From Minisyncoccota bacterium (GTDB lineage Bacteria; Patescibacteriota; Minisyncoccia; Phycocordibacterales; Phycocordibacteraceae), in assembly GCA_038106525.1 (NCBI GenBank), contig JAYOEC010000004.1, forward strand, positions 1-49,773: 49,773 bases of DNA. The letters are read 5' to 3'. Under the pieces are notes generated by a model. It made no database searches and had not been told where the DNA came from. It saw nothing but the letters and a program-made list of their open reading frames with translations. The stretch's first letter is position 1; every line of letters begins with the position of its first letter. The position numbers were made by a program, and so were the translations under genes. Below, one piece after another: positions 1 to 49,773 of this stretch.

Positions 1-153
1 GGGTGGGGCAACGCCTGCAATTCCGAGGTACTAACCGCTGGCAGAGTGTGGAAAAGCGAGGTTGAGACGGGTTGACATGCTTTCAAGTGCCGTCTATGGT
101 ACCAGTAGGTCGACCTTTACGAGGTAATTGGTAGTTTTCAGTTCATACATCGT

Positions 154-276
154 ATGATCGACGATACACAAATGAATCCGAACGCCGACATGCCAGCAGG
201 CGATATGCCTGCCGAGATGGGCGGGGAGATGGAGAAAAAGGAGGAGGGTGAAGGAATGGGCGACTCAGCCGAGTAG
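154..276 (+). CDS. small acidic Met-rich protein (40 aa; not in ORF track)
   Basis: ATG154-TAG276, MIDDTQMNPNADMPAGDMPAEMGGEMEKKEEGEGMGDSAE; preceded by TTGACA(72-77)-17bp-TATGGT(95-100), followed by hairpin 297-322. Confidence 0.55.
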   Translation: MIDDTQMNPNADMPAGDMPAEMGGEMEKKEEGEGMGDSAE

Positions 277-296
277 TCTAGAAAACGGCCTTCACT

Positions 297-323
297 ACAA
301 AGACCCCGGATGGGGTCTTTGTT
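297..323 (+). terminator. hairpin / likely intrinsic terminator
   Basis: ACAAAGACCCC-GGAT-GGGGTCTTTGT perfect 11-bp stem. Confidence 0.6.
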
Positions 324-334
324 ATAGTGCAGTG

Positions 335-538
335 GTGAGGGATACTATCAAGAACAATATTGAATCGTGGCGTCAAAAAGCCGGTATGACTCAAGCGGTA
401 CTCGCTGAACGGGTCGGCGTCACCCGACAGACCATTATTGCGATTGAAAAAGGAGACTACGCACCGTCAGTGGCGCTTGCGCTGAAGCTTGCACGCATAT
501 TTAAATGTAGGGTCGAAGATTTGTTTAAGGTATCCTGA
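335..538 (+). CDS. XRE-family HTH transcriptional regulator
   Basis: MTQAVLAERVGVTRQTIIAIEKGDYAPSVALALKLARIF is a classic HTH_3; GTG335 lies 6 nt after TATAGT. Confidence 0.9.
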   Translation: MRDTIKNNIESWRQKAGMTQAVLAERVGVTRQTIIAIEKGDYAPSVALALKLARIFKCRVEDLFKVS

Positions 539-542
539 GCCT

Positions 543-887
543 ATGCACGCATTTGCACTATCTATTATTCTTTCGCTTGCACTTCTGGTAGTCGCCAATC
601 CGTTCGGGTGGTGGATGCCGACAACATTTCAAAGCATCGCCGCAGGCGCAGTGGCATTCATTCTTGCTGTTTTTGCAGGCATGGTATACCGCGATGGTGC
701 CAAGGACGAACGAGAGCTCGTACTCCGCGCCGAGGCGGCGCGTATCGGCTATCTGGCTGGCATTGCAGTCCTTGGTGCTGCGGTGGTGGTGCCGCTACTC
801 ACCAATGACGAAGTATCTCGTTGGGCACTCGGGGCACTGGTCGCCATGATCATTGCCCGTTTACTTGCGCGGCATCGCGCAGAATAA
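543..887 (+). CDS. small integral membrane protein (DUF2178-like)
   Basis: 4 hydrophobic segments with DERE motif; typical partner of the XRE regulator. Confidence 0.7.
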   Translation: MHAFALSIILSLALLVVANPFGWWMPTTFQSIAAGAVAFILAVFAGMVYRDGAKDERELVLRAEAARIGYLAGIAVLGAAVVVPLLTNDEVSRWALGALVAMIIARLLARHRAE

Positions 888-947
888 TCCACAGGGCAAT
901 GTAAAGGATACTTTACATCCATCTCTCAGTCGCTATACTAGCAGCAT

Positions 948-1526
948 ATGCAAACACCAACTATCGCGGCATTGGTCGCACTCGTGCTTATTATCGGCGG
1001 CGGATTGTACTACAACTACGGCTACCCAGAGGGAGAGGTCATGATGGAAAAGGGTGAGGCAATGATCGAAAAAGGTGATGCCATGATGGAAAAGGGTGAT
1101 GCCATGATGGAAAAAGGCGAGGCGATGATGGAGGAGGGGAAGAAGATGCAGTTTACAGCGGAGGACGGCACTGTATATGAAGGAAGCGCTGACGGAGCAA
1201 CTTGGACTTCAAAGGGCGGCACCTATGAGTCGTATGCCGCGGAAAAGCTTGCCCGCGCAGCTGATGGGCCAGTAGTTCTGTTTTTCCGTGCGTCATGGTG
1301 CCCCACTTGCCGCGCGCTTGATGCGGATATCAAGAAGAATAGCGCTTCTATCCCTGAAGGTGTGACCATCCTCGATGTTAATTATGACGACTCTTCCGCA
1401 CTGAAAAAGCAGTACGGGGTCACTGCGCAGCATACCTTGGTCCAGGTGAATGCTGACGGCTCGATGATCACGAAGTGGAGCGGATCTGGCACACTTGCAG
1501 AAGTACTCGCTCGCATCAAGAAGTAA
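948..1526 (+). CDS. membrane-anchored thioredoxin-family protein with Met-rich repeats
   Basis: N-terminal TM, (MMEKG[D/E]A)n repeats, WCPTC active site. Confidence 0.88.
   Translation: MQTPTIAALVALVLIIGGGLYYNYGYPEGEVMMEKGEAMIEKGDAMMEKGDAMMEKGEAMMEEGKKMQFTAEDGTVYEGSADGATWTSKGGTYESYAAEKLARAADGPVVLFFRASWCPTCRALDADIKKNSASIPEGVTILDVNYDDSSALKKQYGVTAQHTLVQVNADGSMITKWSGSGTLAEVLARIKK
1041..1145 (+). repeat. 21-nt coding tandem repeat, ~5 copies
   Basis: ATGATGGAAAAGGGTGA(G/T)GC-type units encoding MMEKG[D/E]A. Confidence 0.85.
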
Positions 1527-3196
1527 TGATCCTTTTCATTGTCTCGTTTGTAGCCGGCGTTCTAACCGTTCTCGCCCCGTGCATCTTGCCGGTCCTCCCC
1601 GTGGTGATCGGATCCTCGGCAACGGGGAAAAGTAAGTGGACCCCGTTCGTGGTTGTAGGGTCGCTTGGGGTATCGGTGATTGCGTTTACCTTCCTCCTAA
1701 AAGCGTCAACGGTGCTCATTGCAATCCCAGAGACCTTTTGGACCTACTTTGCGGGCGGCGTCTTTGTGCTCTTTGGTCTCACACTGGTGTTTCCCCGAAT
1801 ATGGGAGTCGGTTCCAGGACTTCTGCGCGCCTCTCAGGCGAGTAACCAGCTTCTTGGTGCCGGATTCCAGAAAAAGTCGTTGCTTGGTGATGCGATCGTT
1901 GGTGCCGCGCTGGGTCCAATCTTTTCTACCTGCTCGCCGACTTACTTTCTCATCCTTGCCTCGGTGTTGCCCGCAAGTTACCTCCTCGGCTTTGTGTACA
2001 TTGCAGCATATGTGCTTGGCCTTGCTGCAGTACTCCTTCCGCTCGCACTCTTGGGCGATCGGCTTGCGCACCGGCTTTCCGGCTTTGCGGATCCGAACGG
2101 CTGGTTCAAGCGCGGACTTGGCATACTGTTCATTATGCTCGGGTTTCTGGTGAGTAGCGGGATTATAAAGCAGATTGAGACCGCAATTCTTGATGCTGGC
2201 TACCTTGATATCACCAAGTTCGAGCAGCAAATCCTTGATCTTGTGCAACCAAAAGAGGATCTATCGTCCAGCAAAAGTCCGTATCGCGAGATCAGAGAGC
2301 CAGCTGGGTTTATAAACACTGATCCTTTTACTCTGGGCGATTTGGTAGGGAAGAAGGTAATTTTGGTGGACTTCATGACCTACAGCTGTATTAACTGCCA
2401 ACGGACTTTCCCTTACCTCAATCAATGGTATACCGAGTACCGCGATCAGGGACTCGAGATTGTCGGCATTCATACGCCTGAGTTTGCTTTTGAGCAACGC
2501 ATTGAGAATGTCCGTGCGGCCGCAACAGAGTTTGGGCTCGAATTTCCGTTGGTACTTGATAACGAGTATGCAACTTGGAACGCATACGGGAACCGCTTTT
2601 GGCCGCGTAAGTACCTCATCGATATTCATGGCACTATTGTCTACGATCATATCGGAGAGGGGCAGTATGATGAGACGGAGGCAAAGATTGTCGAGCTATT
2701 AAATGAGCGAAAACGGGTGCTTGGCGAGGAAGGGATCGTCAAGTTGGTTGCAATGTCGCCAAAAGACGCACCGGTGGTTGATTTTTCAGCGGTAAGAACT
2801 CCTGAGACATATCTTGGAGCCGCGCGGACGCAGTATCTGGTCAATGCGCCGAATGTTTCGTGTCTCTCGGGTTCGTGCACCTACTCGTTTTCTGATCGCA
2901 CTTTTCGCGGATATGAGCTGAATGGGGCGTGGTCCATGGATGCAGAGCACGCAATGCTTGAGTCGGAATCCGGTGCAATCCGCATTTCGTTTTCAGCTCG
3001 AAAGGTGCACTTGGTAGCGGGAGCTGAAAAACCGGTCCAGGTTCGCGTCCGTATTGATGGAACATTGGTGTCCGAGTTTATTATTGCGCAGTACCAGTTG
3101 TATGACCTTGTCTCGCTTCCAGAGTACCGTGAGGGAATCCTGGAGGTGGAGTTTATGCAGCCTGGTGTCCGCGCCTTCGCATTCTCGTTCGGATAG
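1526..3196 (+). CDS. dipZ: DipZ-like protein (CcdA/DsbD TM domain + thioredoxin + C-terminal beta domain)
   Basis: LAPCILP and STCSP TM cysteines, YSCINC Trx motif, GIHTPEFAFE; ATG overlaps upstream TAA. Confidence 0.88.
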   Translation: MILFIVSFVAGVLTVLAPCILPVLPVVIGSSATGKSKWTPFVVVGSLGVSVIAFTFLLKASTVLIAIPETFWTYFAGGVFVLFGLTLVFPRIWESVPGLLRASQASNQLLGAGFQKKSLLGDAIVGAALGPIFSTCSPTYFLILASVLPASYLLGFVYIAAYVLGLAAVLLPLALLGDRLAHRLSGFADPNGWFKRGLGILFIMLGFLVSSGIIKQIETAILDAGYLDITKFEQQILDLVQPKEDLSSSKSPYREIREPAGFINTDPFTLGDLVGKKVILVDFMTYSCINCQRTFPYLNQWYTEYRDQGLEIVGIHTPEFAFEQRIENVRAAATEFGLEFPLVLDNEYATWNAYGNRFWPRKYLIDIHGTIVYDHIGEGQYDETEAKIVELLNERKRVLGEEGIVKLVAMSPKDAPVVDFSAVRTPETYLGAARTQYLVNAPNVSCLSGSCTYSFSDRTFRGYELNGAWSMDAEHAMLESESGAIRISFSARKVHLVAGAEKPVQVRVRIDGTLVSEFIIAQYQLYDLVSLPEYREGILEVEFMQPGVRAFAFSFG

Positions 3197-3212
3197 GCTA
3201 CACTGATACTCT

Positions 3213-3674
3213 ATGAAGGCAACGCATGCGTGGGCAATCGTCGGGGTCGGAATTATCAGTATCACAGTTGTGTATCTGCTGTTTGCAACGCCTGCAGCAG
3301 CCCCATCGAAAGAAATTACTGAACCATACCGGTATGTGAACGCAAGTGCGGACGACATTATGGTTTCGCTGCCATATCCAGGCGCGGTAACCGGAAAAAC
3401 TTTTTCTGTAATTGGCGAGGCGCGTGGGTACTGGTTCTTTGAGGCTTCATTTCCAGCCGAACTGAAGACGGCTGACGGCACGGTGCTTTGGCAGGGCCCT
3501 GTTACCACCGATGCGGAGTGGATGACTGCCGACTTTGTTCCGTTCAGGGCGGATATTATCGTCTCTGATCAATCGTTCATTGGTCCAGCAGTACTTGTCC
3601 TCAAGAGGGATAATCCGTCGGGTGAACCCGAGAATGACGCATCGCTCTCGTTCGACATTATTGTTGAATACTAG
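3213..3674 (+). CDS. Gmad2 immunoglobulin-like domain protein
   Basis: N-terminal TM; GEARGYWFFEASFP and DNPSG motifs. Confidence 0.8.
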   Translation: MKATHAWAIVGVGIISITVVYLLFATPAAAPSKEITEPYRYVNASADDIMVSLPYPGAVTGKTFSVIGEARGYWFFEASFPAELKTADGTVLWQGPVTTDAEWMTADFVPFRADIIVSDQSFIGPAVLVLKRDNPSGEPENDASLSFDIIVEY

Positions 3675-3715
3675 TGCTGACGGTTGGCGCGCAGAGCGCG
3701 ATATAGTGTACAGGT

Positions 3716-4681
3716 ATGCTCCGGCAGGTACTGATAGTCGCGCTTGGACTTATCGTCCTTGGTTTTTTGTATACAGTGGTAATCCCGTCACTGCCTGCGT
3801 TGGCAGTTGCTCCAGGCGCAACGCATGAGAACGATTCAAACGCGATCGACTTGCCGGCATTTGTTCCGCCGGACGATCCTGATAGCCCCCCGGCATCCTC
3901 AGGCGGATCCCTCCTCGATGTACAGCCGCTTGGCGGATCTTCGGGAGCTAGTCAAACGGATGACGGATCTTCAGATTCTGGAAGCGGCACCAGCAACACG
4001 GAAGCGGTGCTCACTCTTTCTCTTGGTGCCCCAAGCAGCTCGTCGGGTGTCGAAGCGGACGGTTCGGGGTCTGAGGCAGGGTTCCTCACATCGCTGCTTG
4101 AGGAGTCGGGAGCAATCAGTATTTCCAGTGGTGGCAGCAGTGGCAGTGGCGGGGTAAGTATTTTTGGGGACGCAGTGAGAGGTTTTTTTGCCGGAGAGGG
4201 TATCGAGGAGATCCGGTTTCAAACTTGGGATCCCGTCAGCGAAACATTTGTTCCTGGCGTTGAGCCAACGCAGGTCACAAGCCTTTCTGAGCGCGAAACC
4301 AGCCTTATTGCCGCTGCTGCGGTACTCGAGGATTCTCGCATCGAATCTGTAGATATCTCAGGACCGCGGATAACCATGCAGTACCGAACCTCGGGCAGGA
4401 TCGCTGCTCTGATTCCCATCTCTTTTATCCTCGGCATTGTAGTCGATGGTGCTGCCCCTGAGGGGTTGCGCACGGATTTTTCATATCCGTGGTATCGGTG
4501 GTTCATGTGGCTCACGGTGCCGCGGGCAGAATTAAGAGGCTCGATCGAGCTTGCAATACAAAACGCACTCACCGTTTCTGTAGATGCGAAAGATGCCGAA
4601 GCAAGGGTTTTTACCGCAACTGTTCGTGCGCTCAAGGAGGTACATCGCAGGTACGAAGGGGGTATCCGCATTGTGCTCTAG
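3716..4681 (+). CDS. hypothetical membrane-anchored protein, Ser/Gly-rich linker
   Basis: N-terminal TM, low-complexity S/G region, C-terminal IP...YPWY domain. Confidence 0.7.
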   Translation: MLRQVLIVALGLIVLGFLYTVVIPSLPALAVAPGATHENDSNAIDLPAFVPPDDPDSPPASSGGSLLDVQPLGGSSGASQTDDGSSDSGSGTSNTEAVLTLSLGAPSSSSGVEADGSGSEAGFLTSLLEESGAISISSGGSSGSGGVSIFGDAVRGFFAGEGIEEIRFQTWDPVSETFVPGVEPTQVTSLSERETSLIAAAAVLEDSRIESVDISGPRITMQYRTSGRIAALIPISFILGIVVDGAAPEGLRTDFSYPWYRWFMWLTVPRAELRGSIELAIQNALTVSVDAKDAEARVFTATVRALKEVHRRYEGGIRIVL

Positions 4682-4700
4682 TTTGCTATACTACCCGAGT

Positions 4701-5711
4701 ATGAAGATCCATGACGCGGTACGCGCGCTCATGAAGCAGGGCAAAGGCATTCTTGCCGCCGACGAGTCAACTCGTACCATTACTGAGCGATTCTCAGAAC
4801 TTGGCATTCCTTCGAACGAGGATACGCGCCGTCAGTACCGCGAGTTGCTGCTCGCCACCCCGGGCGTTGAGCGCTACTTAAGCGGCGTCATTCTATTTGA
4901 CGAGACCATTCGGCAGGCGCTGTCAGACGGGACGCCCTTTGTTGACTTTCTTTCAGCTCGTAGCATTCTTGTCGGAATAAAAGTTGATGAGGGAGTAGTG
5001 CGCGACCCCCAGTTTGAGGGAGGAGAGGTGACCAAGGGCCTTGAAGGGCTACGCGAGCGCATGCGCGAGTATGTCTCACTCGGTGCACAGTTTACCAAAT
5101 GGCGCGCAGTGCATGCTGTTGCAAGAGAACATAGTTCTCCTGCAGTTCGGGAGAATGCTTCGCGTATGGCGGCATATGCCGCAGATGCGCTTTCAGAGGG
5201 TCTAGTTCCTATTGTAGAGCCGGAGGTGCTGATGCAAGGGGTGCACAGTGCTGAGGATGCTGAGCGGGCCATCCAAGAAGTACTCTCGCTCACGGTTGAC
5301 GCGCTTCATGCACGAGACATTGACCTCAAACAGGTGATTATAAAGACCGCAATGGCCGTGTCGGGCGACATGGCGCCCGAGCGAGCGGCGCCCTTAGAGG
5401 TTGCCGAGCGCACGGCGCGCGCGTTAGTGGGCGCACTTCCTGAAGAAATCGGCGGTGTCGTGTTCCTCTCGGGTGGTCAGAGTCCTGAAGAAGCAACAAT
5501 GAATCTCAACGCCATTGCTCGCATCGAGCCGTTGCCGTGGCCCATTACATTTTCATTCGCACGCGCGCTTCAGGCACCTGCGCTCCAGGTTTGGAAGGGC
5601 GATGACGCTCGTCGCGCCGAAGCGCAGTCCGTTTTTCTTGAACGACTGTCGCTTACAGCTGCCGCAGATGCTGCTGGATATTCGCCGCAACAGGAAGAAA
5701 GCTCTCTTTAG
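4701..5711 (+). CDS. fructose-bisphosphate aldolase class I
   Basis: GKGILAADES, GIKVD, KWR, PIVEPEV, FLSGGQS, FSFARALQ; start reassigned to ATG4701. Confidence 0.93.
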   Translation: MKIHDAVRALMKQGKGILAADESTRTITERFSELGIPSNEDTRRQYRELLLATPGVERYLSGVILFDETIRQALSDGTPFVDFLSARSILVGIKVDEGVVRDPQFEGGEVTKGLEGLRERMREYVSLGAQFTKWRAVHAVAREHSSPAVRENASRMAAYAADALSEGLVPIVEPEVLMQGVHSAEDAERAIQEVLSLTVDALHARDIDLKQVIIKTAMAVSGDMAPERAAPLEVAERTARALVGALPEEIGGVVFLSGGQSPEEATMNLNAIARIEPLPWPITFSFARALQAPALQVWKGDDARRAEAQSVFLERLSLTAAADAAGYSPQQEESSL

Positions 5712-5777
5712 GACTTGGTATAGAGCCGTGTATTCTGGTGTCGTTTGACAATCCAAATTTTTATTCCAATACACAGC

Positions 5778-5786
5778 TTATCCACA
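5778..5786 (+). promoter_or_regulatory. consensus DnaA box upstream of nrdA
   Basis: TTATCCACA about 45 nt upstream of -10 TACAAT (5831-5836). Confidence 0.5.
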
Positions 5787-5846
5787 CGCTGGTGCATTTT
5801 TTCTTCGGACAGTGCGCGTGGCAGAGGGGGTACAATACGGGGACCT

Positions 5847-15677: not shown

Positions 15678-18284
15678 ATGAGTGCAAAAAAGAAAGAGGA
15701 GCACGGGCAACTCGATACCATCCGCGTGCGCGGCGCAAAGACGCACAATCTGAAGAATATTTCGGTCGAATTGCCACGAAACAAGATGGTAGTCTTTACC
15801 GGCCTTTCCGGATCGGGCAAGTCGTCGCTTGCGTTTGATACCATCTTTGCCGAAGGTCAACGCCGGTATGTCGAGTCGCTCTCAGCCTATGCGCGCCAGT
15901 TTTTAAATCAGATGTCAAAGCCTGATGTCGAGGAAATCACCGGACTCTCGCCCGCAATATCAATCGATCAAAAGTCACGATCTAACAATCCTCGTTCAAC
16001 GGTGGCGACCATTACGGAAATTTACGACTACCTCCGCATCCTGTATGCGCGTGTCGGTCAGCCATACTGTCTTACCGACGATGTGCCAATCGAAAGGCTC
16101 TCAAAGGAGGAAATCTTAAAAATTATCCTTCGCACCGTTGAAGCCGAGGATATACAAAAGAGTTCAAAAAAAGTGCTCGGTGTGCCGGTGTCCGGCGCTG
16201 CGGTGCGCATCCTTGCGCCAGTAGTGGTTGGCCGGAAGGGCGAGTACTATCAACTTCTGTACGATCTCCTCGGCAAAGGATATGAGAAGGTGGTGGTCGA
16301 CGGCGTCGGGCATCGGCTCCGCGAGCGAATTACGCTTGAAAAGACCAAAGTCCACGACATTGATGTTGTAGTAGACGAGATATTCCTTTCTGAATTTGAG
16401 AGCGCATCAGAGAGCGCGCGTGAGCGACTTTCCGAGGCGGTAGAGCTTGCGCTGAAAGAATCGAACGGTCTGGTAAGAATCAAGAATCCCGCAGGCGAAG
16501 AGCGGCTGCTCTCGGCCAAATTTATCTGCCCGAGCGACGGATCATCGTTCCCTGAAGTTGAACCACGCCTTTTTTCCTTCAACTCGCCGTATGGTGCGTG
16601 TCCTGAATGCAATGGGCTTGGAACAGTTGGCTTTTTCAGTCTAGACCAGTGCCCAAAGTGTTCTGGGGCGCGGCTTCGGCCCGAGGCACTCCGCGTATTT
16701 CTTGGCGGTGGCCCGAATGTCGGCAGGAATATCGTCGAGCTCACGCGGCTTTCAATCGTTGATGCCAAGTCTTTTATCACAGAGCTTGCACTCACCAAGA
16801 AACAAGAAGAGATATCAACCTCGGTTTTAAAAGAGATCACTGCCCGACTCGACTTCATGATTAATGTTGGCATCGGGTACCTAACACTGGATCGCACTGC
16901 AAACACTCTTTCGGGCGGTGAGGCGCAACGCATCAGGCTCGCGTCGCAGCTCGGTTCTGGCTTGGTGGGTGCACTCTATGTGCTCGATGAACCAACCATT
17001 GGTCTCCATCAAAAAGACAACGATCAGCTTATCAAGACACTGGTCCGGCTCCGTGATATCGGGAACACTATTATTGTGGTTGAGCATGATGAAGACACCA
17101 TCTTTGCATCAGACTACCTTGTTGATATTGGTCCCGGCGCGGGTGTCCACGGCGGCACTGTGGTGGTGTCGGGCTGGCTCGAGGAGCTGCTGACGGCAAA
17201 AAAGAATACCAGTGGTTCCGCGACGCTCGCGTACCTCCGCGGAGAACGAAAGATCGAAGTCCCTGCCGAGCGACGCACCGAGCAAAAAGGAGCGCTGAAG
17301 ATTCGCAAGGGGGTGGTACATAACATTACAAACATGGATGTCGATGTTCCGCTCGGCAGGCTTACGGTCATTACTGGCGTCTCAGGATCGGGGAAGTCGA
17401 CATTTATGTACGACATCCTGCACCGGAACCTCCGCGCGCGTCTCGAGTACAAGTACCGCTCACCAAAAACATTTAACTGTACAAGCTTTAGCGGATCCGA
17501 ATATCTCTCTCGCGTCATTCTGATCGACCAGTCGCCGATTGGCCGCACGCCGCGTTCGAATCCGGTCACCTATACCGGCGCCTTTACTCACATCCGCGAA
17601 ATGTTTGCCGCTACTGCCGAGGCGCGGGCGCGCGGGTGGAAATCAAACCGCTTTAGTTTCAATGTGAAAGGCGGAAGATGCGAGGCATGTCAAGGCAACG
17701 GCACTATTGCAGTTGAAATGCACTTTTTGCCGACCGTATTTGCCACCTGCGATGTATGCAACGGCACGCGTTTTATGCAGGAGACTCTGGATATCAAGTA
17801 CAAGGGTAAGAATATCAACGAGGTACTCCATATGACCATCGAGGAAGGTCTTGCATTTTTTGCCGATATTCCAGCGATTCATGACCGATTGAGCACCTTG
17901 TCTGCAGTAGGGCTCGGGTATCTCGAGCTTGGGCAATCGGCAACCACATTGTCTGGTGGCGAAGCTCAGCGCGTTAAAATATCTTCCGAACTGTATCGCC
18001 GTCACACTGAAAAGACCATCTACCTTCTCGACGAGCCGACCATCGGTCTCCACTACGAGGATGTTAAAAAGCTGATCGAGATTTTGCAGTCGCTGGTTGA
18101 CAAGGGCAATACAGTGGTGATTATCGAGCACAACATGGACCTGATTAAGTGTGCAGATTATCTTATTGATATTGGCCCCGAGGGCGGGGTAGGTGGCGGC
18201 AAAGTAGTTGCTGCAGGTACCCCCGAAGAAGTGGCACGGGTCAAAGGATCGCACACGGGGCACTACCTCAAGCGCTACCTGTAA
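15678..18284 (+). CDS. uvrA: excinuclease ABC subunit A
   Basis: two ABC modules ([24 protein letters not shown] x2), CEAC..CDVC zinc finger. Confidence 0.97.
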
Positions 18285-23686: not shown

Positions 23687-24814
23687 TCAACGATGTTTTG
23701 TTTCCGAGAAATGAGCATAGATCGCTTTGGCAAGAGCTGATGACAGCACGGTCGGGACTGCGTTTCCGATCTGCAGGTTCCGCTCGCTGCGAGTGCCATA
23801 AAATTGATACCAATCAGGAAAGCATTGCAGTCGCGCGCCCTCGCGCGTGGTGAGGGCGCGCGGTGCCTTCGGGTGTATGCATCGTGAGGATGAAGGGGTC
23901 CCTAGGTTGCGGGTAATTGTGGTTGAAGGTCGGTTCCACCACAACCTGCAATAGGTATTCTTGAACCCCGAGGAGGGCCGAAACCTCTTTGGTAGGTCGT
24001 CGGGTGTTCCTCCGTCTGGCAGGAGCTGCATGAGGCGCACCAATTTCTGATTATGAGTAGGTGCATTGTGGTCCATTAATTTGCTTGGAGCTCCGGTGCG
24101 CATAAGCGACTGAAACTTGGTTCGTGGGGGTGTGGCGTATACGGTGCTCTCCTCACCAGACTGAATGAGGGGGAGGTCGCTCATGGCGTCAGCGATGGTG
24201 AGGTACGGTTGCAGATGTGCCTTCAATGGTCGTGCGGTGCGCATCGGATCGTAGTGTGTTGGGGCTGGGTATTTAAATTCATGTGCGAGCTTTGAGCCGG
24301 TAATAATGACTCGCTCGCGGATCTGTGGCGCTCCATAGTCAGCCGCATTGAGAAGCCTCGATTGTACACGATAGCCAAGAGATTCGAAGAGGGAAATAAT
24401 TTCTGCATGCAACTCACCGCCCTGCATAGATAACAACCCCTTTACATTCTCAAAAAGAAAAAATTTGGGCTTAAACTCCTTGAGCATTCGATAGTATTCA
24501 ACAAAGAGCTTGCCTCGGGGGTCGTCGATCATTCGTTTACCCACGGTCGAGTATGCCTGGCAGGGTGGGCTTCCAACAACAATGTCGACATTGTGGCCCA
24601 GTGTGCCAAGGTCACGCTCGACTCTCTGTGCACTAAAGTGTTTGATGTCTTCAACATACATCCGTATTGTCGGATGGTTTAGTAGGTAGGCAGCTGCCAT
24701 GCTCGGGAGTATCTCGTTTGCAGCAACAATTTCAAACGCCTTGTGGTTTGCAAAGCCGAAGCTGAGCCCCCCTGCGCCACAGAAGAGGTCAATAACTTTT
24801 AATTTTTTAGCCAT
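23687..24814 (-). CDS. DNA (cytosine-5) methyltransferase of a type II R-M system
   Basis: DLFCGAGG, PPCQ, FENV, QIRER, REGARLQ.FP, QIGNAVP; start reassigned to ATG24814. Confidence 0.95.
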   Translation of the reverse strand: MAKKLKVIDLFCGAGGLSFGFANHKAFEIVAANEILPSMAAAYLLNHPTIRMYVEDIKHFSAQRVERDLGTLGHNVDIVVGSPPCQAYSTVGKRMIDDPRGKLFVEYYRMLKEFKPKFFLFENVKGLLSMQGGELHAEIISLFESLGYRVQSRLLNAADYGAPQIRERVIITGSKLAHEFKYPAPTHYDPMRTARPLKAHLQPYLTIADAMSDLPLIQSGEESTVYATPPRTKFQSLMRTGAPSKLMDHNAPTHNQKLVRLMQLLPDGGTPDDLPKRFRPSSGFKNTYCRLWWNRPSTTITRNLGTPSSSRCIHPKAPRALTTREGARLQCFPDWYQFYGTRSERNLQIGNAVPTVLSSALAKAIYAHFSETKHR

Positions 24815-25610
24815 GGTTATTGGCGAGGTTGAGCGCGTAGTAGCGGGGTGGATCTTTCGCAATATCCCAGACAAAGTCTTTCTGTGGGATTTCAAACACA
24901 AGCTGCCCCTCCATTTGCTGCCGATGCACCCAATGTACGCCGGTTTCGCTCATGGTGTCTAGTCGGACAAACGCAGCTCGTCCGTTGTGTAGGTCGAAGT
25001 GGATGACCAAAGATTCGATGTGCTCTTTGCTGAATGCATGCTTTGCCTCGAGCACTTTGTGCCTTTTAATATCGTTCACACCAGTGAAGCCGGATTGTAC
25101 CTCAATGCGAAGCCTTTTCGCTCCGTCCAAATGTACCTCGAGGTCTGCCTTAGGTGTTTTTTTGAAAGTCTCCAGTTTGGTAAAGTCGTCGTCCCCGATA
25201 AATCGGATTTTTGCCTGATCTAGGTCAAAAATATGACCGACAGACGGTAAAAAGTATCTTGAGATAAGGTATCCTCGCATCCATGAAAAGTAGACCTGCT
25301 CGCGCCTCCTCCCAAGGTTATTAAGTGCCCCTACAATTCCATTTTTTTGCATCTGCTCGAACACACGATCAATATGCCGCTTCTTAAACGCTTCACTATC
25401 GCGGGGGCGTACCTTCGGAGTGACACTAGCATCGAGCCGGTCGACTATCTCACGAAGACGCATATTCAAATGATTGAGATACACAAGGTCGATGGCGGGA
25501 CTGATATCCTTGGCCCCAAAAAAGTCTTTGGCAGCCGATTTCGAGTTAAATCCTAATCTCTTACGGTAATGCTTCCCATGCTGAGCCAAAATAACTTGCT
25601 TTGGTGTCAT
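24807..25610 (-). CDS. probable type II restriction endonuclease (PD-(D/E)xK-like)
   Basis: overlaps the MTase start; KADL...IEVQSG...DIK nuclease-like motif. Confidence 0.75.
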   Translation of the reverse strand: MTPKQVILAQHGKHYRKRLGFNSKSAAKDFFGAKDISPAIDLVYLNHLNMRLREIVDRLDASVTPKVRPRDSEAFKKRHIDRVFEQMQKNGIVGALNNLGRRREQVYFSWMRGYLISRYFLPSVGHIFDLDQAKIRFIGDDDFTKLETFKKTPKADLEVHLDGAKRLRIEVQSGFTGVNDIKRHKVLEAKHAFSKEHIESLVIHFDLHNGRAAFVRLDTMSETGVHWVHRQQMEGQLVFEIPQKDFVWDIAKDPPRYYALNLANNHG

Positions 25611-25721: not shown

Positions 25722-26081
25722 CTAGTTGCCACTTGATCCTAACTTCCGCGGATCTATTCCCATTATCACTGTTCCAGAGCGCGGAGTGCCATTACATTCT
25801 GCTGGTGCTATGGTCACAAAATAATCAGAATCTACATCTATAATTTGATAAAGATTTCCTGATGTGTTCGGGTAACTGGCAATATGCCCAAGAATGGCGT
25901 TAAGTTTTCTATGTTCTTTATGGTCATCTGCGGTAAAGGTCACATATTTGCGATCAGCCACAAGCTTAAGTGCGGTACCCAAAAGTCCTGCCGCAACACT
26001 CTCAAAATGTGTTCTCTCGAGCGGGGTTGCCCTGCGACGGGGATGTGAAACCCAAGCATCCTTGAGCGATTCAGATGACAT
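25722..26081 (-). CDS. hypothetical protein
   Basis: AT-richer ORF between tRNA and R-M genes; TACGAT 6 nt before ATG26081. Confidence 0.5.
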   Translation of the reverse strand: MSSESLKDAWVSHPRRRATPLERTHFESVAAGLLGTALKLVADRKYVTFTADDHKEHRKLNAILGHIASYPNTSGNLYQIIDVDSDYFVTIAPAECNGTPRSGTVIMGIDPRKLGSSGN

Positions 26082-26254
26082 ATAGACATCGTAGTTTGTT
26101 ACAACCATAGAGTCAACACACATTGTTCGCATGCACTAAAGTAGGATTACCTTTTCTGATCTTTGTTATCTACACAAACAGCTTGCTCTCTCGCATCCGA
26201 TGCTGTCTCCCCAAATTCCTATTTCCATAATTGAAACTATATCAAAACCCTGGG

Positions 26255-26326
26255 CTCCGCGGGTAGGACTCGAACCTACAACCAACTCGTTAACAGCGAG
26301 CTGCTCTACCATTGAGCTACCGCGGA
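26255..26326 (-). tRNA. tRNA-Asn(GTT)
   Basis: reverse complement TCCGCGGTAGCTCAATGGTAGAGC..CTCGCT-GTT-AACGAG..GGTTCGAGTCC..CCGCGGAG cloverleaf. Confidence 0.96.
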
Positions 26327-26545
26327 ATATCTTCCTAATGGAAGGAACTGAAATTCCGCGGGAGCGTAGCTACTACCGGAGCTTCCGAGAGTCGCACAAA
26401 AGCTTGCTTTTGTATGACCGAGGAAGCGGCCGGGAGGAAGGCTGGTGTTAGCCAGACTTACCGCGGAATACGCCTGTAGTGTAGCTGATTTTTTTGTTAC
26501 TGCCAAGACTTTGACTCTGAAGTTCCTGGTGTCTATACTGACACA

Positions 26546-42813: not shown

Positions 42814-42821
42814 TGCTGCAA

Positions 42822-43304: not shown

Positions 43305-43308
43305 GTGC

Positions 43309-44889
43309 ATGTTTTGGCTAGACCGTATCTTTGGCGAAGCAGAAAAGCAGCTAGCGGCCAAAATTGCGGCTGGCAAGACACTATTAATACGGGACGAGAA
43401 GACCGCGTCAGGTCGCGTACATGTGGGTTCGATGCGTGCCTTGGCGCTCCACGCTGCGCTTTCTGAACGGCTTACAGAAGCGAACATACAAAACAGGTTT
43501 GTATACGAAATCAACGACTTCGATCCGATGGATGGGTTGCCTGTGTACTTGGATGCAGAAGTATACAGGCAATACCTTGGAATGCCGCTTTGTAACATCC
43601 CTGCTCCTGATGGAAAGGCGGAAAACTTTGCTGAGTTTTATGCGGCAGAATACATAACGGCTATTCGCGCTGCCGGTTTCAGCCCTGAGTTTACTCGAGC
43701 ATCAAAGCTGTACCGAAGTGGCCAAATGAATGGTGTTATTCGTGAGGCGTTAGAGAAGGTAACAACTGTTAAAGCGATATACAAAGATCTCACCGGTCAG
43801 GATAGACCAGAAAATTGGTACCCGATCAATGTCGTATGCGAAAATTGCAAAAAATTGAGTACCACAAAGGTGACTGCGTTTAATGGCAAAGAAGTGACAT
43901 ATACATGCTACCCGACCGCCGTTGAGTGGACGCAAGGCTGTGGGCATCAAGGAACGATCTCACCATTCGACGGAAACGCAAAACTGCTATTTAAGCTTGA
44001 CTGGCCTGCAAAGTGGAAGGTGTACGGCGTCGACATAGAGGGCGGAGGTAAGGATCATTACTCGAGAGGTGGAACGCGCGATTACGGGCGCAGACTTTCA
44101 AGGGAGGTGTTTAACTATCCAGAGCCATTTGGCGTGCCAAACGAATTCTTCTTAGTTGGAGGCAAAAAGATGTCTTCGTCAAAAGGGGCGGGATCTGCCG
44201 CAGCAGAGGTCGTATCACTTATGCCAGCACACATTTTCCGTCTTGCGCTCTACGGTAAGGATATTAATCAGCAGATTAACTTTTCTCCAGAGGGCGACAC
44301 TATTCCAGTTTTGCATGATACATACGACCGTATTGCTGAGAGGGTCTGGGAAGGAGAGCGGGGGGATGACGCACGACTTTTCAAATACATAAACACCGAA
44401 CCGTGGTTGAATGAAAAGCGCTTTCTGCCCCGTTTCTCACAGGTTGCATTTCTTGTTCAAATGCCTCACCTCAGCCTGCATGAAGAGGTCGAAAGAATGA
44501 AAGGGGCGCCGCTTACAGATCTCGATAAGAAGGAGCTTGCGTCACGGGCTGAGTATGCGCGGGTCTGGCTTGACCGCGCAGCAGGCGAGGAATTCAAGTT
44601 TTTTCTCCAAGCCGAACTGCCAGCAAACTACTCTGTTACTGATGCACAGTGCGATGCGCTCAAAACTTTACTACAGTATCTTAATTCGCATGATCAGCTG
44701 GACGGACAGGAATTGCATACTGATCTCCATGAGATGAGGAAGAAGAGCGGTTTGGAGCCAAAGGATTTTTTTGGTCCCATCTATGTCGCGCTCCTCGGTA
44801 AGGATTACGGACCCAAAATGGGCTGGTTCTTGAGCGTTTTACCAAGGCCATTTTTAGATCAAAGGATCAGGCAGGCACAAGAGAGATAA
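43309..44889 (+). CDS. lysS: lysine--tRNA ligase, class I
   Basis: SGRVHVG, DWP.KW, GKDH, KMSSSKG, GPKMG. Confidence 0.94.
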   Translation: MFWLDRIFGEAEKQLAAKIAAGKTLLIRDEKTASGRVHVGSMRALALHAALSERLTEANIQNRFVYEINDFDPMDGLPVYLDAEVYRQYLGMPLCNIPAPDGKAENFAEFYAAEYITAIRAAGFSPEFTRASKLYRSGQMNGVIREALEKVTTVKAIYKDLTGQDRPENWYPINVVCENCKKLSTTKVTAFNGKEVTYTCYPTAVEWTQGCGHQGTISPFDGNAKLLFKLDWPAKWKVYGVDIEGGGKDHYSRGGTRDYGRRLSREVFNYPEPFGVPNEFFLVGGKKMSSSKGAGSAAAEVVSLMPAHIFRLALYGKDINQQINFSPEGDTIPVLHDTYDRIAERVWEGERGDDARLFKYINTEPWLNEKRFLPRFSQVAFLVQMPHLSLHEEVERMKGAPLTDLDKKELASRAEYARVWLDRAAGEEFKFFLQAELPANYSVTDAQCDALKTLLQYLNSHDQLDGQELHTDLHEMRKKSGLEPKDFFGPIYVALLGKDYGPKMGWFLSVLPRPFLDQRIRQAQER

Positions 44890-44915
44890 CCGCCCACCCG
44901 GGTGGTTTTTTGTTT
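44888..44915 (+). terminator. intrinsic terminator after lysS
   Basis: AACCGCCC-ACCC-GGGTGGTT followed by T-tract. Confidence 0.7.
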
Positions 44916-44922
44916 GGCTGTA

Positions 44923-44967
44923 TTGGGGATAAGTGTATTGCAGTGGGTTGAAGTGGGATATAGTGTC
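44923..44967 (+). promoter_or_regulatory. MraZ-binding direct repeats
   Basis: TTGGG/GTGTA/GTGGG/GTGGG/GTGTC at exact 10-nt period directly before mraZ. Confidence 0.7.
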
Positions 44968-44970
44968 ATT

Positions 44971-45405
44971 ATGCTGATCGGCGAGTATACACATACGCTC
45001 GACGACAAAAAGCGTCTTTCGCTGCCTGCTAAATTTCGCAAAGAACTTGGGAGGGGGATCATCATTACCCGCGGCCTTGATCGGTGTTTATTCATGTTTT
45101 CCGCTCCGGCGTGGAAGCGAATTACCGAGAAGATGGAAGCACTTTCAATGGGGGCGGGTGAGTCACGGGGGTTTAACCGATTCATGCTTGCTGGCGCCGT
45201 AGAGGCTGAGATAGATTCGGCGGGCAGGATTCTCATTCCTGACTTTCTCAAGGACTTTGCGGGGCTCAAAAGCAAGGTGGTGTTTGCTGGCGTGGGTGAT
45301 CGCGCAGAGCTGTGGGATCAAAAGCGATGGGCAATGTACACGACCAGAATTGAGTCTGAAGCGGACACTATGGCAGAGAAACTTGGTTCGATTGGAGTCC
45401 TCTAA
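44971..45405 (+). CDS. mraZ: transcriptional regulator MraZ
   Basis: GEYTHTLDDKKRLSLP, DSAGRILIP, ELW. Confidence 0.96.
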   Translation: MLIGEYTHTLDDKKRLSLPAKFRKELGRGIIITRGLDRCLFMFSAPAWKRITEKMEALSMGAGESRGFNRFMLAGAVEAEIDSAGRILIPDFLKDFAGLKSKVVFAGVGDRAELWDQKRWAMYTTRIESEADTMAEKLGSIGVL

Positions 45406-45408
45406 CCC

Positions 45409-46305
45409 ATGCACACACATACCACCGTACTGTTGCGAGAATCAGTTGACGGGCTTCAGCTTGAGCCGCGAGATATCGCCGTAGATGGGACCGTCGGCCA
45501 AGGTGGCCACGCTGCACTCATGGCAGAGCAGGTTGGGCAGAACGGAACCGTTCTCATGCTCGACGCTGACGAATCCTCGCTCAAGATGGCACAAGAAAGG
45601 CTACGGGGTAGTGCTGCACACCTCATCTTTGTGCACGGCAACTTCAGGAATATAGGCGAACACGCAGCACGAGCCGGGATTACCAGCGCAGATGGAGTTC
45701 TGTTTGATCTTGGCTGGCATTCTGGGCAGCTGACCTCGGGCCGTGGATTCTCGTTTGCCGAGGATGCCCCGCTCATGATGACGCTCGCCACAGATCCGGA
45801 ACCGTATCAGATGACCGCTGCGGATATTATTGCAGGGTGGGATCAGGGTGAGCTCGAGCGGTTGTTCCGTGATTTTGGAGAGGAGCGATTTGCCGGCCGC
45901 ATTGCCCGTGTCATTGTTGAAACTCGTCGCACGACGCCAATCACCCATGCGCGGCAGCTTGCCGATGTGGTGGTGAGTGCAGTGCCTGCTGCAGCGCGGA
46001 GGGGGCGTATCCACCCAGCGACACGCGTGTTTCAGGCACTCCGCATTGCAGTCAACGATGAGCTCGGCGCGCTTCGAGACGGAATTCGTAGTGCGTTGCA
46101 GCTCCTCGCACCTGAGGGGAGGCTTGCGATTATCAGCTTTCATTCGCTCGAGGATCGGATTGTTAAAGAAGCCTTCAAAGCTGCAGAGGACGAGGGGCTT
46201 GGTGTTCGAATAACAAAAAAACCAATTCAGGCCACCCGAACAGAGCAGCGAGCTAATCCGAGATCTCGAAGTGCAAAATTAAGAATATTTGAAAAATATG
46301 CGTAA
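45409..46305 (+). CDS. rsmH: 16S rRNA C1402 N4-methyltransferase
   Basis: DGTVGQGGH, HPATRVFQALRIAVNDEL, FHSLEDR, NPRSRSAKLR. Confidence 0.96.
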   Translation: MHTHTTVLLRESVDGLQLEPRDIAVDGTVGQGGHAALMAEQVGQNGTVLMLDADESSLKMAQERLRGSAAHLIFVHGNFRNIGEHAARAGITSADGVLFDLGWHSGQLTSGRGFSFAEDAPLMMTLATDPEPYQMTAADIIAGWDQGELERLFRDFGEERFAGRIARVIVETRRTTPITHARQLADVVVSAVPAAARRGRIHPATRVFQALRIAVNDELGALRDGIRSALQLLAPEGRLAIISFHSLEDRIVKEAFKAAEDEGLGVRITKKPIQATRTEQRANPRSRSAKLRIFEKYA

Positions 46306-46663
46306 GAAAAATCGTATTTCATATGCGCAGAAGCAACTCCCGTTTTCGGGCACTGCGCGAGCATTGGTATCGCCGTTCAAGTATGAGTATCGCGCGTTCG
46401 CTGCGCTAGGAAGCGTACTCGGCATTGTTGCGGTGGCATATGGAGTCTGTGTTGGAGTGTCAATTGCGCATGTAGCTGCCCGCGCAGCTTTGGTCGAGGA
46501 TACCCGCGCGCTCTCTGCCGCTGCGGCGGCGCTCGAGCACACCTACCTTGCTGAAACCCGTGGTATTACTGAATCGTACGCCATCTCTCTTGGATTTGGT
46601 GCGCCAGAGCGGCGCGTCTATCTGAAGGAGGGTTCGGCGCTCGCTTCAGCTCATGCGCGCTAA
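46298..46663 (+). CDS. FtsL-like cell division protein
   Basis: single TM + coiled coil between rsmH and ftsI. Confidence 0.6.
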   Translation: MRKKNRISYAQKQLPFSGTARALVSPFKYEYRAFAALGSVLGIVAVAYGVCVGVSIAHVAARAALVEDTRALSAAAAALEHTYLAETRGITESYAISLGFGAPERRVYLKEGSALASAHAR

Positions 46664-48389
46664 GTTCATATTTCGCATCAGGATTATTGCAATCCTGCTG
46701 GTGCTCTGCACTGCAGGCATGCTTGCGAAACTCTACCTGGTACAAATTGTGCATGGGGGCGAGTACCGCGAGCAGGCAGAGAATCAACACATCACCCCGA
46801 GCGCGCATGTACTTGATCGGGGAACTATCTACTTTTCAGAACGCGACGGCTCTTTGATTTCTGCAGCGACTCTGACAAATGGATACACTGTGGCGCTGGT
46901 TCCCCGCGCTGTCAAAGATTCTGCACTGGCACTTTCGGTTGCCTCCGACCTCATTCCTGACATTGACCGCGAAACATTCCTTGCAAAAGCCGCTAAAGCA
47001 GATGATCCGTACGAGGAGATCGGCCGCCAGTATTCTGAGGACATTGGCTCGGCAATCCTTGCTGCAGCAGTGCCTGGACTCGAGGCGTACCGTGAACGAT
47101 GGCGCTCATATCCCGGCGACGAGCTTGCAGCACATGAAGTGGGATTTCTTGGGTTCGGCAACGGGACCGAACTCACCGGGCAATACGGCCTCGAACGCGC
47201 CTATGACGCGCAACTTACAAAGCCGACATCAGGACTTAAAATAAACTTTTTTGCAGATCTTTTTACGAATGTCGGAGGAAGCCTGTTTGGTTCCGATGAT
47301 GGACCCGGGGCGGATCTAATTACCTCTATCGAGCCAAGCGTTCAGGCATTTATAGAGGATGAACTTTTGCTGTATCAGCGCGAGTGGAATGCAAAAACAG
47401 TTGGTGCCATTGTTCTTGATCCAAAGACCGGCGAGGTGCTTGCCATGGCCTCGCGACCCACATTTAATCCAAATGATATTAAAAACGCTCGGCCAGATGT
47501 TCTCGCTAACCCAATGGTTGAACGGGTGTATGAATTTGGATCGATTGCAAAACCACTGACCATGGCAGCGGCGCTCGACGCGGGCGTGGTGGTGCAGTCG
47601 TCTACTTACACTGACACTGGCTCAGTGCAAATCGACGGCAAGACGATCTCCAATTTCGACAAACGGGCGCGCGGAGTTGTACCGATGCAGGAAATTCTTT
47701 CGCAGTCGCTCAATGTGGGTATCGCGCATCTTGTTCAAAAAATGGGTGCTGATACTGCCAAAGAGTACCTTTCCGCGTTTGGACTTACCGAGGAGACTGG
47801 TGTCGACCTTCCGGGAGAGGCATCGCCGCTTGTATCCAACCTCGAAAGTCCGCGAACTCTTGAGTTTGTAACTGCAGGATTCGGGCAGGGGATTGCAGTA
47901 ACTCCCATTGCTATGGCGCGCGCACTTGCAGCGCTTGCAAACGGTGGTCAACTGGTAGCACCGCACCTTGGTATTGAACTCAAGTATCCTGGCGGTGCTA
48001 CCCGTAGTATTGGATGGGCACCGCCCCGCGCTGCAGTTCAACCAGCTGCTGCGGAGGTTACCACGCGGATGCTCGTTGAGGTGGTTGACACCGCACTCAA
48101 AAACGGAAAGGCAAAAGTCCCTGAAATGAGCATCGCCGCAAAAACGGGCACTGCTCAAATTGCGGATCCCGTGCATGGAGGGTACTATGCAGACAGGTAC
48201 CTACACTCGTTTTTTGGGTACTTTCCTGCATACGACGCGCGATTTCTGATTTTCTTCTTTGCAGTCGAGCCGGTTGGCGCGCAGTATGCATCCGATACCT
48301 GGACGCTGCCATTCAAGCGGACCGTGTCATTCCTTACTACTTACTATCAGGTGCCGCCTGATCGGGCACCGATTACTACTGCCCCATGA
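46653..48389 (+). CDS. ftsI: class B PBP (FtsI/PBP3)
   Basis: RGTIY, SIAK, SLN, KTGT; dcw context. Confidence 0.9.
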   Translation: MRAKFIFRIRIIAILLVLCTAGMLAKLYLVQIVHGGEYREQAENQHITPSAHVLDRGTIYFSERDGSLISAATLTNGYTVALVPRAVKDSALALSVASDLIPDIDRETFLAKAAKADDPYEEIGRQYSEDIGSAILAAAVPGLEAYRERWRSYPGDELAAHEVGFLGFGNGTELTGQYGLERAYDAQLTKPTSGLKINFFADLFTNVGGSLFGSDDGPGADLITSIEPSVQAFIEDELLLYQREWNAKTVGAIVLDPKTGEVLAMASRPTFNPNDIKNARPDVLANPMVERVYEFGSIAKPLTMAAALDAGVVVQSSTYTDTGSVQIDGKTISNFDKRARGVVPMQEILSQSLNVGIAHLVQKMGADTAKEYLSAFGLTEETGVDLPGEASPLVSNLESPRTLEFVTAGFGQGIAVTPIAMARALAALANGGQLVAPHLGIELKYPGGATRSIGWAPPRAAVQPAAAEVTTRMLVEVVDTALKNGKAKVPEMSIAAKTGTAQIADPVHGGYYADRYLHSFFGYFPAYDARFLIFFFAVEPVGAQYASDTWTLPFKRTVSFLTTYYQVPPDRAPITTAP

Positions 48390-49675
48390 AAGAAATCGTA
48401 CGATCTCTCGTTGTTCGGATACTCACTCTCGAGGCGCTTTTTTTGTTACGGCGGCACCGTCCGCGCGTAGTCATGGTTACTGGATCGGTGGGCAAGACCT
48501 CGACCAAGGATGCAACCTTTGCTGCCTTTACTAAAACGCGGTTCGTGCGACGGAGTGAGAAGAGCTACAATTCTGACATCGGTGCTCCGCTTGCAGTTCT
48601 AGGGTTGCCAAATGGGTGGAATAGTCCGCTTCAGTGGGTCCGGAACATTATTGACGGGGCGTTGCTTGTGCTTGCACACACTCCATATCCTGAGTGGCTG
48701 ATCGTTGAGGTTGGGGCGGATCGTCCTGGCGACATCACCCGCTCTCTTACATGGCTGAAACCTGAGGTGGTTATCGCAACACATTTCCCCGCAGTGCCAG
48801 TCCATGTTGAGTTTTACGACTCACCGAGGGCAGTGGTGGCAGAGGAGCTTGCCCCGCTTACCTGGCTCTCGCCAGGAGGCGTTGCGGTGATCAATGGCGA
48901 CGATGGTGCAGCATCCTCATTTGAGCTACCGGAGGGTGTCGAGCGCATTACCTACGGATTTTCAAACACTGCAGCAGTGCGGATCACCCGCCTACGAACA
49001 CTCGTAGCGAAAGGGAAGCCTACCGGAATCAGTTTTGATGTCTCGTGGGGGTCAGAGAGGGCGCATGTGTCGCTAAGCGGGGTTTTAGGCGCTGCGCACG
49101 CCACTGCTGTCGCCGCAGGAATTGCGGCAGCAGTAGGAACTGGTATGAGCTTGGAGGATGCGGTGAGCGGAGCCAGCGCCTATGAAGCACCGCCGGGCCG
49201 TATGCGCATTATTACAGGCACTGCAGGGATAACGCTCATTGATGACAGCTACAACGCGTCTCCGGCAGCCGTATTGCAAGGTCTTGAGGCGCTGCGATCA
49301 ATCAGTGGAGCGGGGAAGCGGATTGCAGTTCTTGGTGACATGCTCGAGCTCGGAGCGTACTCGATTCAGGAACATGTACGAATCGGCAAGGCTGCAGCCG
49401 AGGCAGCTGATGTCCTCATAACTGTTGGCGTGCGGGCGCGCGGCATCGCAGCAGGGGCGCTTGAGGCTGGGATGTCAGGAGAGAGTATTGCTCAATTTGA
49501 ACGCGGATCTGACGCAGCCACACATCTCGCCGCACTTGCTGAAGAGAGAGATGTGTTGTTTATAAAGGGCTCGCAAGGGATGCGGATGGAGCGGGTGGTA
49601 CGGGCGCTCATGGCAGATCCGTCTGAAGCAGCAAAACTTCTGTGTCGCCAGGATCCAGAGTGGATGCTTCGGTAG
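48386..49675 (+). CDS. murF: UDP-MurNAc-tripeptide--D-Ala-D-Ala ligase
   Basis: TGSVGKTSTK, DDSYNASP, LGDMLELG, KGSQ. Confidence 0.93.
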   Translation: MKEIVRSLVVRILTLEALFLLRRHRPRVVMVTGSVGKTSTKDATFAAFTKTRFVRRSEKSYNSDIGAPLAVLGLPNGWNSPLQWVRNIIDGALLVLAHTPYPEWLIVEVGADRPGDITRSLTWLKPEVVIATHFPAVPVHVEFYDSPRAVVAEELAPLTWLSPGGVAVINGDDGAASSFELPEGVERITYGFSNTAAVRITRLRTLVAKGKPTGISFDVSWGSERAHVSLSGVLGAAHATAVAAGIAAAVGTGMSLEDAVSGASAYEAPPGRMRIITGTAGITLIDDSYNASPAAVLQGLEALRSISGAGKRIAVLGDMLELGAYSIQEHVRIGKAAAEAADVLITVGVRARGIAAGALEAGMSGESIAQFERGSDAATHLAALAEERDVLFIKGSQGMRMERVVRALMADPSEAAKLLCRQDPEWMLR

Positions 49676-49700
49676 CTTGTCTGTGGTATAGTCTGCACGC

Positions 49701-49772
49701 GGCCTCATCGTCTAACGGTTAGGACAGCGCCCTCTCAAGGCGCAAATCCGGGTTCGATTCCCGGTGGGGTCA
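49701..49772 (+). tRNA. tRNA-Glu(CTC)
   Basis: GGCCTCA acceptor, GCGCC-CT-CTC-AA-GGCGC anticodon arm, GGTTCGATTCC T-loop. Confidence 0.96.
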
Positions 49773-49773
49773 C

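Follow-up and report, generated by a model that had tools for sequence, protein, structure and literature searches.

Orthodox Type II restriction-modification (R-M) systems with a long life in a lineage cause avoidance of their recognition site in the host genome, and traces of such avoidance occur in relatives that lack the system; in one survey a site counts as under-represented against a threshold of 0.78 (Rusinov et al. 2015, PMC4687349). Described systems directed at the four-base palindrome ACGT include Hpy99XI/HpyCH4IV of Helicobacter pylori, where M.Hpy99XI (jhp0435) is given as an ACGT methylase producing 5-methylcytosine (m5C; PMC3936762), and MaeII of Methanococcus aeolicus, for which A^CGT and m5C are stated (PMC10113651). 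In H. pylori ACGT is among the most under-represented motifs, at 53-295 sites per Mb, a loss much of which is attributed to deamination (PMC10423294). Here we describe a 49,773-bp contig of a Minisyncoccota bacterium (JAYOEC010000004.1, assembly GCA_038106525.1; referred to as the window, i.e. the whole stretch of DNA that was analysed) from which ACGT is entirely missing, and which encodes a predicted R-M cassette comprising a putative restriction endonuclease (REase) and a C5 cytosine methyltransferase. This predicted orthodox Type IIP system with ACGT as its putative target, or an ACGT-specific predecessor, has probably been resident for a long time and probably purged the word through selection arising from self-cutting.

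The locus resembles the H. pylori systems in its putative ACGT target, in the C5 class of its methylase and in the depletion of its host; target and class are the points on which it agrees with the M.HpyCH4IV/M.Hpy99XI likeness put forward in the original prediction. It differs in residing in a 0.6-Mb Patescibacteria-type genome with only one C5 methylase. The GC content of H. pylori is 39%, and on a rough reckoning of ~3,500 sites per Mb its ACGT count would be only a few percent of what is expected. A small genome that has lost a short palindrome almost entirely is also reminiscent of phages, which reportedly avoid restriction sites as an anti-restriction measure; here, in contrast, it is a cellular genome that encodes the nuclease itself. 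MaeII shares the word and the m5C protection, whilst being an archaeal system whose likeness is drawn from its description; avoidance of ACGT in its own genome is not among the points reported in the accessible part of that source. With the systems treated by Rusinov et al. (2015) the present case shares an orthodox pairing of restriction and modification genes, a site that is palindromic and under-represented in the host, and traces left in system-free relatives, and departs from them in degree, with a ratio of observed to expected sites (obs/exp) of ~0.005 in the core genome against the threshold of 0.78.

ACGT occurs on neither strand of the window, as the original prediction had concluded from reading the sequence by eye, whereas 100 dinucleotide-preserving shuffles contain a mean of 158.4 sites (s.d. 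11.8). The expectation is 192 from base composition (about 190 in the original prediction, which assumed uniformity), 158.5 under a first-order Markov model (Markov-1) and 90.7 under a second-order model (Markov-2), which for ACGT is itself lowered by the absence of the word; the Poisson probability of finding none is 1.6e-69 with 158.4 sites expected and 4.1e-40 with 90.7. All 593 occurrences of ACG are followed by A (181), C (191) or G (221) and never by T, and the remaining 15 four-base palindromes have obs/exp ratios of 0.65-1.35 (Markov-2), in agreement with the earlier statement that other such palindromes are plentiful. The same holds across the source genome (24 contigs, 602,774 bp, estimated to be 96% complete), which has 80 sites against 1,973 (Markov-1) or 1,100 (Markov-2) expected, and none in 12 of the 24 contigs. 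The second-lowest 4-mer ratio is 0.75, none of the 5- and 6-mers not containing ACGT falls below 0.61, and no other word is depleted comparably. Outside RNA genes and the atypical islands described below, 9 sites remain of an expected total of roughly 1,800, and the core genome is ~99.5% ACGT-free. Set beside the H. pylori range in PMC10423294, the overall density of 133 per Mb makes the premise of the original prediction, that avoidance in cellular genomes is normally only partial, too strong.

Assignment of the cassette methylase (Table 1) to the C5 class is supported by matches to PF00145 (3e-71, positions 1-323 of 324), TIGR00675 and PADLOC MTase_II (1.6e-103). Its sequence holds FCGAGG, PCQ, ENV, QIRER and GNAVP, which we take to be the usual C5 methylase catalytic motifs; it provides the only PF00145 match in the source genome, where N4/N6 methylases of PF01555 type were looked for and none was found. 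The REase is without a match in Pfam, NCBIfam or PADLOC. It has 818 homologs, several of which are named 'restriction endonuclease' by NCBI, and keeps all 66 of the columns that are invariant across 36 aligned family members; possible catalytic residues may lie among the invariant acidic and lysine columns (D140-142, E158, E170, K182, K185, E188 and K190). An AlphaFold (AF2) model has a predicted local distance difference test (pLDDT) score of 84, and its Foldseek matches to folds in the PDB are all weak (best E 1.6e-3, template modelling (TM) score 0.2-0.3 on the query), the clearest among them being PD-(D/E)XK nucleases, i.e. archaeal Hjc, HincII, DpnI, SwaI and the SPARDA nuclease. The REase stop codon and the methylase ATG overlap by 8 bp. 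Orthodox Type IIP organisation, with adjacent, separate restriction and modification genes and a complete methylase domain, is present, and judged by their sequences both proteins look functional.

When each species was represented by a single genome, 176 stretches encoding relatives of the REase were returned, from which 80 loci (L056-L135) were kept. Carriers include Patescibacteria, Campylobacterota (Arcobacter, Sulfurimonas and a Helicobacteraceae metagenome-assembled genome (MAG), L134), Moraxella, Riemerella, Bergeyella, Cloacimonadota and Rickettsiales-type MAGs, amongst others. A methylase match was obtained by tblastn in 78 of the 80 loci, in 77 of them downstream on the same strand with 58-73% identity, and in 74 within 500 bp. 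Once 13 loci shorter than 6 kb had been dropped, ACGT was depleted more strongly than any of the other 15 palindromes in 52 of the remaining 67, and took second place in 6, third place in 4 and a lower place in 5, with a pooled count of 161 against 1,887 expected (0.085). The cassettes themselves contain 8 sites against 158 expected, and removing them leaves the result in place: the flanks of 60 loci have 133 sites against 1,534 (0.087), with 30 loci lacking the site altogether and 43 below 0.1. In contrast, 34 control samples from REase-free relatives of the source genome contain 1,636 sites against 2,085 (0.78). Since carriers across phyla are ACGT-poor, we infer ACGT to be the target of the cassette. 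The tie between depletion and a resident R-M system asserted in the original prediction is upheld by these carriers, and by the near-normal ACGT content of most same-genus genomes that lack the cassette.

A variant arrangement is found in two carriers, G049 and G050, which by their record titles belong to different candidate phyla of Patescibacteria-type genomes. Here the REase homolog, retaining 66 of the 66 invariant residues in G049 (L089) and 64 of the 66 in G050 (L127), precedes, in place of the C5 methylase, a conserved NOV_C-domain (PF13020) protein of 247 aa similar to the PADLOC TmtA C-terminus, whose copies in the two genomes are 73% identical; PF00145 has no match anywhere in either assembly. 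G050 is purged like the source genome, with 56 ACGT against 694 expected in 361 kb and with site-rich islands. Both genomes have ACGT in their 16S rRNA genes (5 sites in G049, 3 in G050) and several N4/N6-methylase matches (4 and 6, respectively), and protection by another methylase is therefore the simpler reading. That the nuclease is instead kept without a cognate methylase, self-protection being provided mainly by the near-complete purge together with some other safeguard for the rRNA sites, and that ACGT density acts as a clock dating acquired segments, strikes us as doubtful.

The 80 sites remaining in the source genome are strongly clustered: rRNA genes, where residual sites had been suggested to be worth seeking, account for 6 (3 each in 16S and 23S), tRNA genes for 6 and seven atypical stretches for 59, with 9 elsewhere. 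ACGT-free sequence borders these islands to the left and to the right within their contigs. The largest, of ~4.9 kb (C5:5861-10780, equivalent to L001:1862-6781), has 18 sites at a normal density and a GC content of 0.39-0.45 against 0.54 in its flanks, starts where a tRNA gene has its 3' end, and carries genes for a P-type ATPase, for a DUF305 protein and for a DUF411/beta-propeller protein. The same unit is present in contigs of three other studies at 97-99.8% identity, with differing flanks and with loose ends that coincide at both borders; the differences number 8 over 4,910 letters (X5), 1 over 2,785 (X8) and 136 over 4,920 (X10), where stretches of L001 left uncovered in these contigs are not counted as absence. 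A contig of another study (X3 record 7) bridges the right border into the source genome's own flank. Recurrence of the unit elsewhere with other flanks identifies it as a mobile element of recent arrival. In one of the contigs from those three studies the left-border sequence appears again ~230 letters beyond the right border, and a repeat or a circular form could account for this.

A second island, on C17, has 15 sites and encodes a large serine recombinase, a major facilitator superfamily (MFS) pump, two HlyD proteins, MarR, a glutathione S-transferase (GST) and an NAD(P)H-binding protein, whilst an ACGT-rich end of contig C18 carries a transposase-like helix-turn-helix (HTH) protein and a LOOT RNA (RF03000, 83 bits, C18:1070-1190, L008). 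The other ACGT-bearing stretches hold a cytidylyltransferase; a transketolase-like protein with a class I aminoacyl-tRNA synthetase; a 2,722-aa open reading frame (ORF); and an amine oxidase. The sites that remain serve as marks of foreign DNA. The 2,722-aa frame, at G000:C15:4422-12590, by itself holds 6 ACGT sites. In its 16S rRNA gene, where the numbers are small, the source genome has 3 sites, against 4-8 in 11 aligned relatives of the same genus, and four positions that are often ACGT in those relatives have been lost by mixed changes. The 16S matches extend over 1,625 bases in one relative (L159, G001) and 2,314 in another (L164, G016), against ~1,460 in the others, which suggests insertions.

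The REase was found in none of 24 same-genus and none of 16 same-order species genomes, most of which, sampled over up to 20 kb per genome, are near-normal for ACGT (obs/exp 0.8-1.0). Even the same-genus genomes are distant, with 68-73% DNA identity in conserved genes and 85-92.5% in 16S; at such identity silent sites are saturated, and the fate of ancestral ACGT sites could not be followed by alignment. Other palindromes are purged in the first contigs of some of these relatives (L010-L049), among them TCGA in G018 (13 against 126 expected) and G004 (25 against 86), GATC in G017 (21 against 95), CTAG in G011 (6 against 38) and GGCC in G001 (0 against 8), and strong site avoidance seems to be common in this group.

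Codon contexts were counted in the 518 ORFs of the source genome outside islands. CGT accounts for 6 of 1,647 arginine codons after NNA, as compared with 20%, 11% and 23% after NNC, NNG and NNT, respectively, and ACG for 2 of 1,407 threonine codons before T, as compared with 19-34% elsewhere; the share thus freed is spread roughly proportionally over ACA (0.24), ACC (0.44) and ACT (0.31), with ACA not in excess. Where an NAY codon precedes GTN, it is NAT in 1,208 of 1,208 cases and NAC in none, against 48-51% C elsewhere, which extends to the whole set the usage noted previously for the Asp-, His-, Asn- and Tyr-Val pairs inspected (the example string then quoted is located at position 17334). 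Pooling the 67 carrier loci gives the same picture, with CGT after NNA in 36 of 3,714 cases (1.0% vs 18.8%) and ACA before T at 0.31 vs 0.35, while 30 control loci, from which four depleted relatives were left out, exhibit no such purge (18.2% vs 22.8% for CGT after NNA). In the pooled carriers ACT before T rises to 0.48 (0.25 elsewhere) and ACA shows no rise; what takes the place of ACG-T is therefore something other than the product of deamination.

In the explanation that we consider probable, a PD-(D/E)XK-type endonuclease would be translationally coupled to a C5 methyltransferase, both recognising ACGT, and this cassette or its ACGT-specific predecessor would have been long resident in the lineage. 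Occasional cuts at unmethylated ACGT in the cell's own DNA would select against each dispensable site, which could be lost by any silent route, i.e. NAC-GTN to NAT-GTN, ACG-T to ACH-T, and NNA-CGT to NNB-CGT or NNA-CGV/AGR; constrained rRNA and tRNA sites and recently transferred DNA would survive, and the intact methylase would methylate, and so protect, what survives. Deamination of 5-methylcytosine may speed the loss of sites in such a scheme, as distinct from being its main cause. The original prediction had instead offered unrepaired deamination as one of two causes: a C5 methylase makes A(5mC)GT a mutational hotspot that, without Vsr, decays to ATGT and ACAT with no selection involved. 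The class of the methylase fits this proposal, as does the failure to find Vsr (PF03852; its control was detected in Escherichia coli) in a genome estimated to be 96% complete, as distinct from Dcm/Vsr-type C5 systems; one gene of the uracil-DNA glycosylase (UDG) family is present. The predicted surplus of decay products exists as a slight excess, with ATGT and ACAT at 1.12 of expectation genome-wide (Markov-2), and PMC10423294 ascribes much of the ACGT loss in H. pylori to the same process. However, this excess, which is roughly 450, can account for no more than a quarter of the lost sites, and at NNA-CGT both deamination products change arginine to cysteine or histidine. Loss by mutation alone should therefore spare such sites, which ordinary silent changes would make and remove equally fast, yet their purge is just as thorough in the source genome and in the carriers. 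A core obs/exp of ~0.005 would moreover demand, on a back-of-envelope equilibrium estimate, a hotspot factor of several hundred, and G050 is depleted despite having no C5 methylase. Decay alone is accordingly very unlikely. Whereas the authors of the H. pylori study stress deamination, codon context here points to selection on the word; we conclude that such selection does most of the work, with occasional self-cutting as its most plausible source and deamination at most supplying some of the mutations.

Several observations nevertheless weigh against the explanation we prefer. One ACGT site in the 16S gene of the source genome has been gained, being absent from 11 of 11 aligned same-genus relatives, and single sites are therefore tolerated. 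About 9 of the 67 carrier loci are depleted only modestly (0.38-0.72); the relatives and carriers are phylogenetically non-independent samples; and the case for the REase family cutting ACGT, whilst strong, is indirect, its basis being comparative depletion. A residence-time idea, by which recent cassettes with a GC content unlike their flanks would be accompanied by weaker depletion, is unsupported: the absolute cassette-flank GC difference correlates with obs/exp in the opposite direction (Spearman -0.43). The nearest relative, G007 (16S 92.5%), has 292 ACGT against 610 expected (0.48), and three same-order genomes are depleted further, namely G031 (12 against 259, 0.05), G034 (30 against 209, 0.14) and G027 (34 against 256, 0.13), each exception having been confirmed on 80-140 kb. 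No REase and no close methylase homolog was found in these four genomes, and no C5 methylase at all in G007, G031 or G034; they look like traces of lost systems or the work of non-homologous ACGT systems. The original prediction had held that equal depletion in relatives that never had the system would count against it; these three same-order genomes bear this out in part, most relatives being near-normal. Since cassette-free relatives are also depleted, the purge need not have begun with the present cassette and may predate it or stem from other systems. It is conceivable, albeit rather unlikely, that the order was reversed, with the lineage already ACGT-poor through an earlier or different ACGT system or through restriction from outside, and with the cassette established later and maintaining the depletion. 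Traces of lost R-M systems are described as common in PMC4687349, and the cassette adjoins a tRNA gene (tRNA-Asn, 640 bp upstream of the REase start, with a 75-nt match of 100% identity in G007) and is without a counterpart in the DNA of five same-genus genomes, even though the tRNA and flanking genes do match. Against such an order, most same-genus genomes are near normal, so that an earlier purge would not be ancient for the genus; the association of depletion with the cassette is strong across phyla; and the cassette GC of 0.47-0.57 resembles that of the genome, which suggests long residence. We regard as highly improbable the further proposal of a site-free self, made in the original prediction, by which the shedding of sites would let the nuclease work while methylation is slight or absent, leaving the methylase near-dispensable. 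The 50-kb window would indeed need no methylation, and G049 and G050 combine an intact REase homolog and a NOV_C protein with ACGT-poor REase loci and no C5 methylase; those two genomes, however, keep 16S sites and have N4/N6-methylase matches able to protect them, whilst the source genome itself retains its 80 sites, of which rRNA and tRNA genes hold 12. Its methylase is intact, with all motifs and translational coupling to the REase, and this is therefore not a site-free, methylase-free genome. An artefact of assembly, binning or library preparation has next to no probability: in a 24-contig assembly ACGT-rich stretches could in principle be chimeric, but the compensation at codon level, which extends to all three frames, bears the signature of evolution, the islands sit within contigs between ACGT-free flanks, the right junction of the C5 island is bridged by a contig from another study, and the same pattern is seen across 60 unrelated assemblies.

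Table 1. Features of the window and of the variant cassettes, with positions on the window unless a locus is named.
Feature	Position	Strand	Basis or remark
ACGT-free tract	1..49773	.	whole contig C24 (G000:C24:1-49773); 0 sites vs 158 expected
C5 cytosine DNA methyltransferase, 375 aa from ATG at 24814	23687..24814	-	PF00145, TIGR00675, PADLOC MTase_II
Putative Type IIP REase, 267 aa, putative target ACGT	24807..25610	-	homologs; ACGT-poor carriers
136-aa ORF between cassette and tRNA, possible cassette member	25722..26132	-	ORF list
tRNA-Asn adjoining cassette, possible integration landmark	26251..26327	-	ARAGORN
Variant cassette of G049, REase homolog then 247-aa NOV_C protein	L089:9926-11533		
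Variant cassette of G050, REase homolog then 247-aa NOV_C protein	L127:10001-11542		

The 136-aa ORF in Table 1 has no match in Pfam, NCBIfam or PADLOC. Both site avoidance by Type II R-M systems and the loss of ACGT from H. pylori have been published, and what is seen in this genome is therefore a known kind of effect, of which it is an unusually clean and extreme case and not a new kind of system. Its breadth may be new, in that one conserved cassette has carriers across many phyla that are nearly ACGT-free. A literature search of limited coverage found nothing on ACGT avoidance in Patescibacteria, and a preprint on methyltransferases of the Candidate Phyla Radiation (CPR) contains 0 occurrences of ACGT or 'avoid'.

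The genome offers a clean natural example of one restriction enzyme reshaping its host, in which reading frames, codon pairs and even rRNA avoid a single word. Thanks to the same effect across phyla, genome composition alone can tell for which word an uncharacterised endonuclease family is specific, and the residual sites provide a simple marker of recently imported DNA in uncultured genomes. If the doubtful reading of the variant cassettes were true, ACGT density would go further and date every horizontally acquired segment in cassette carriers.

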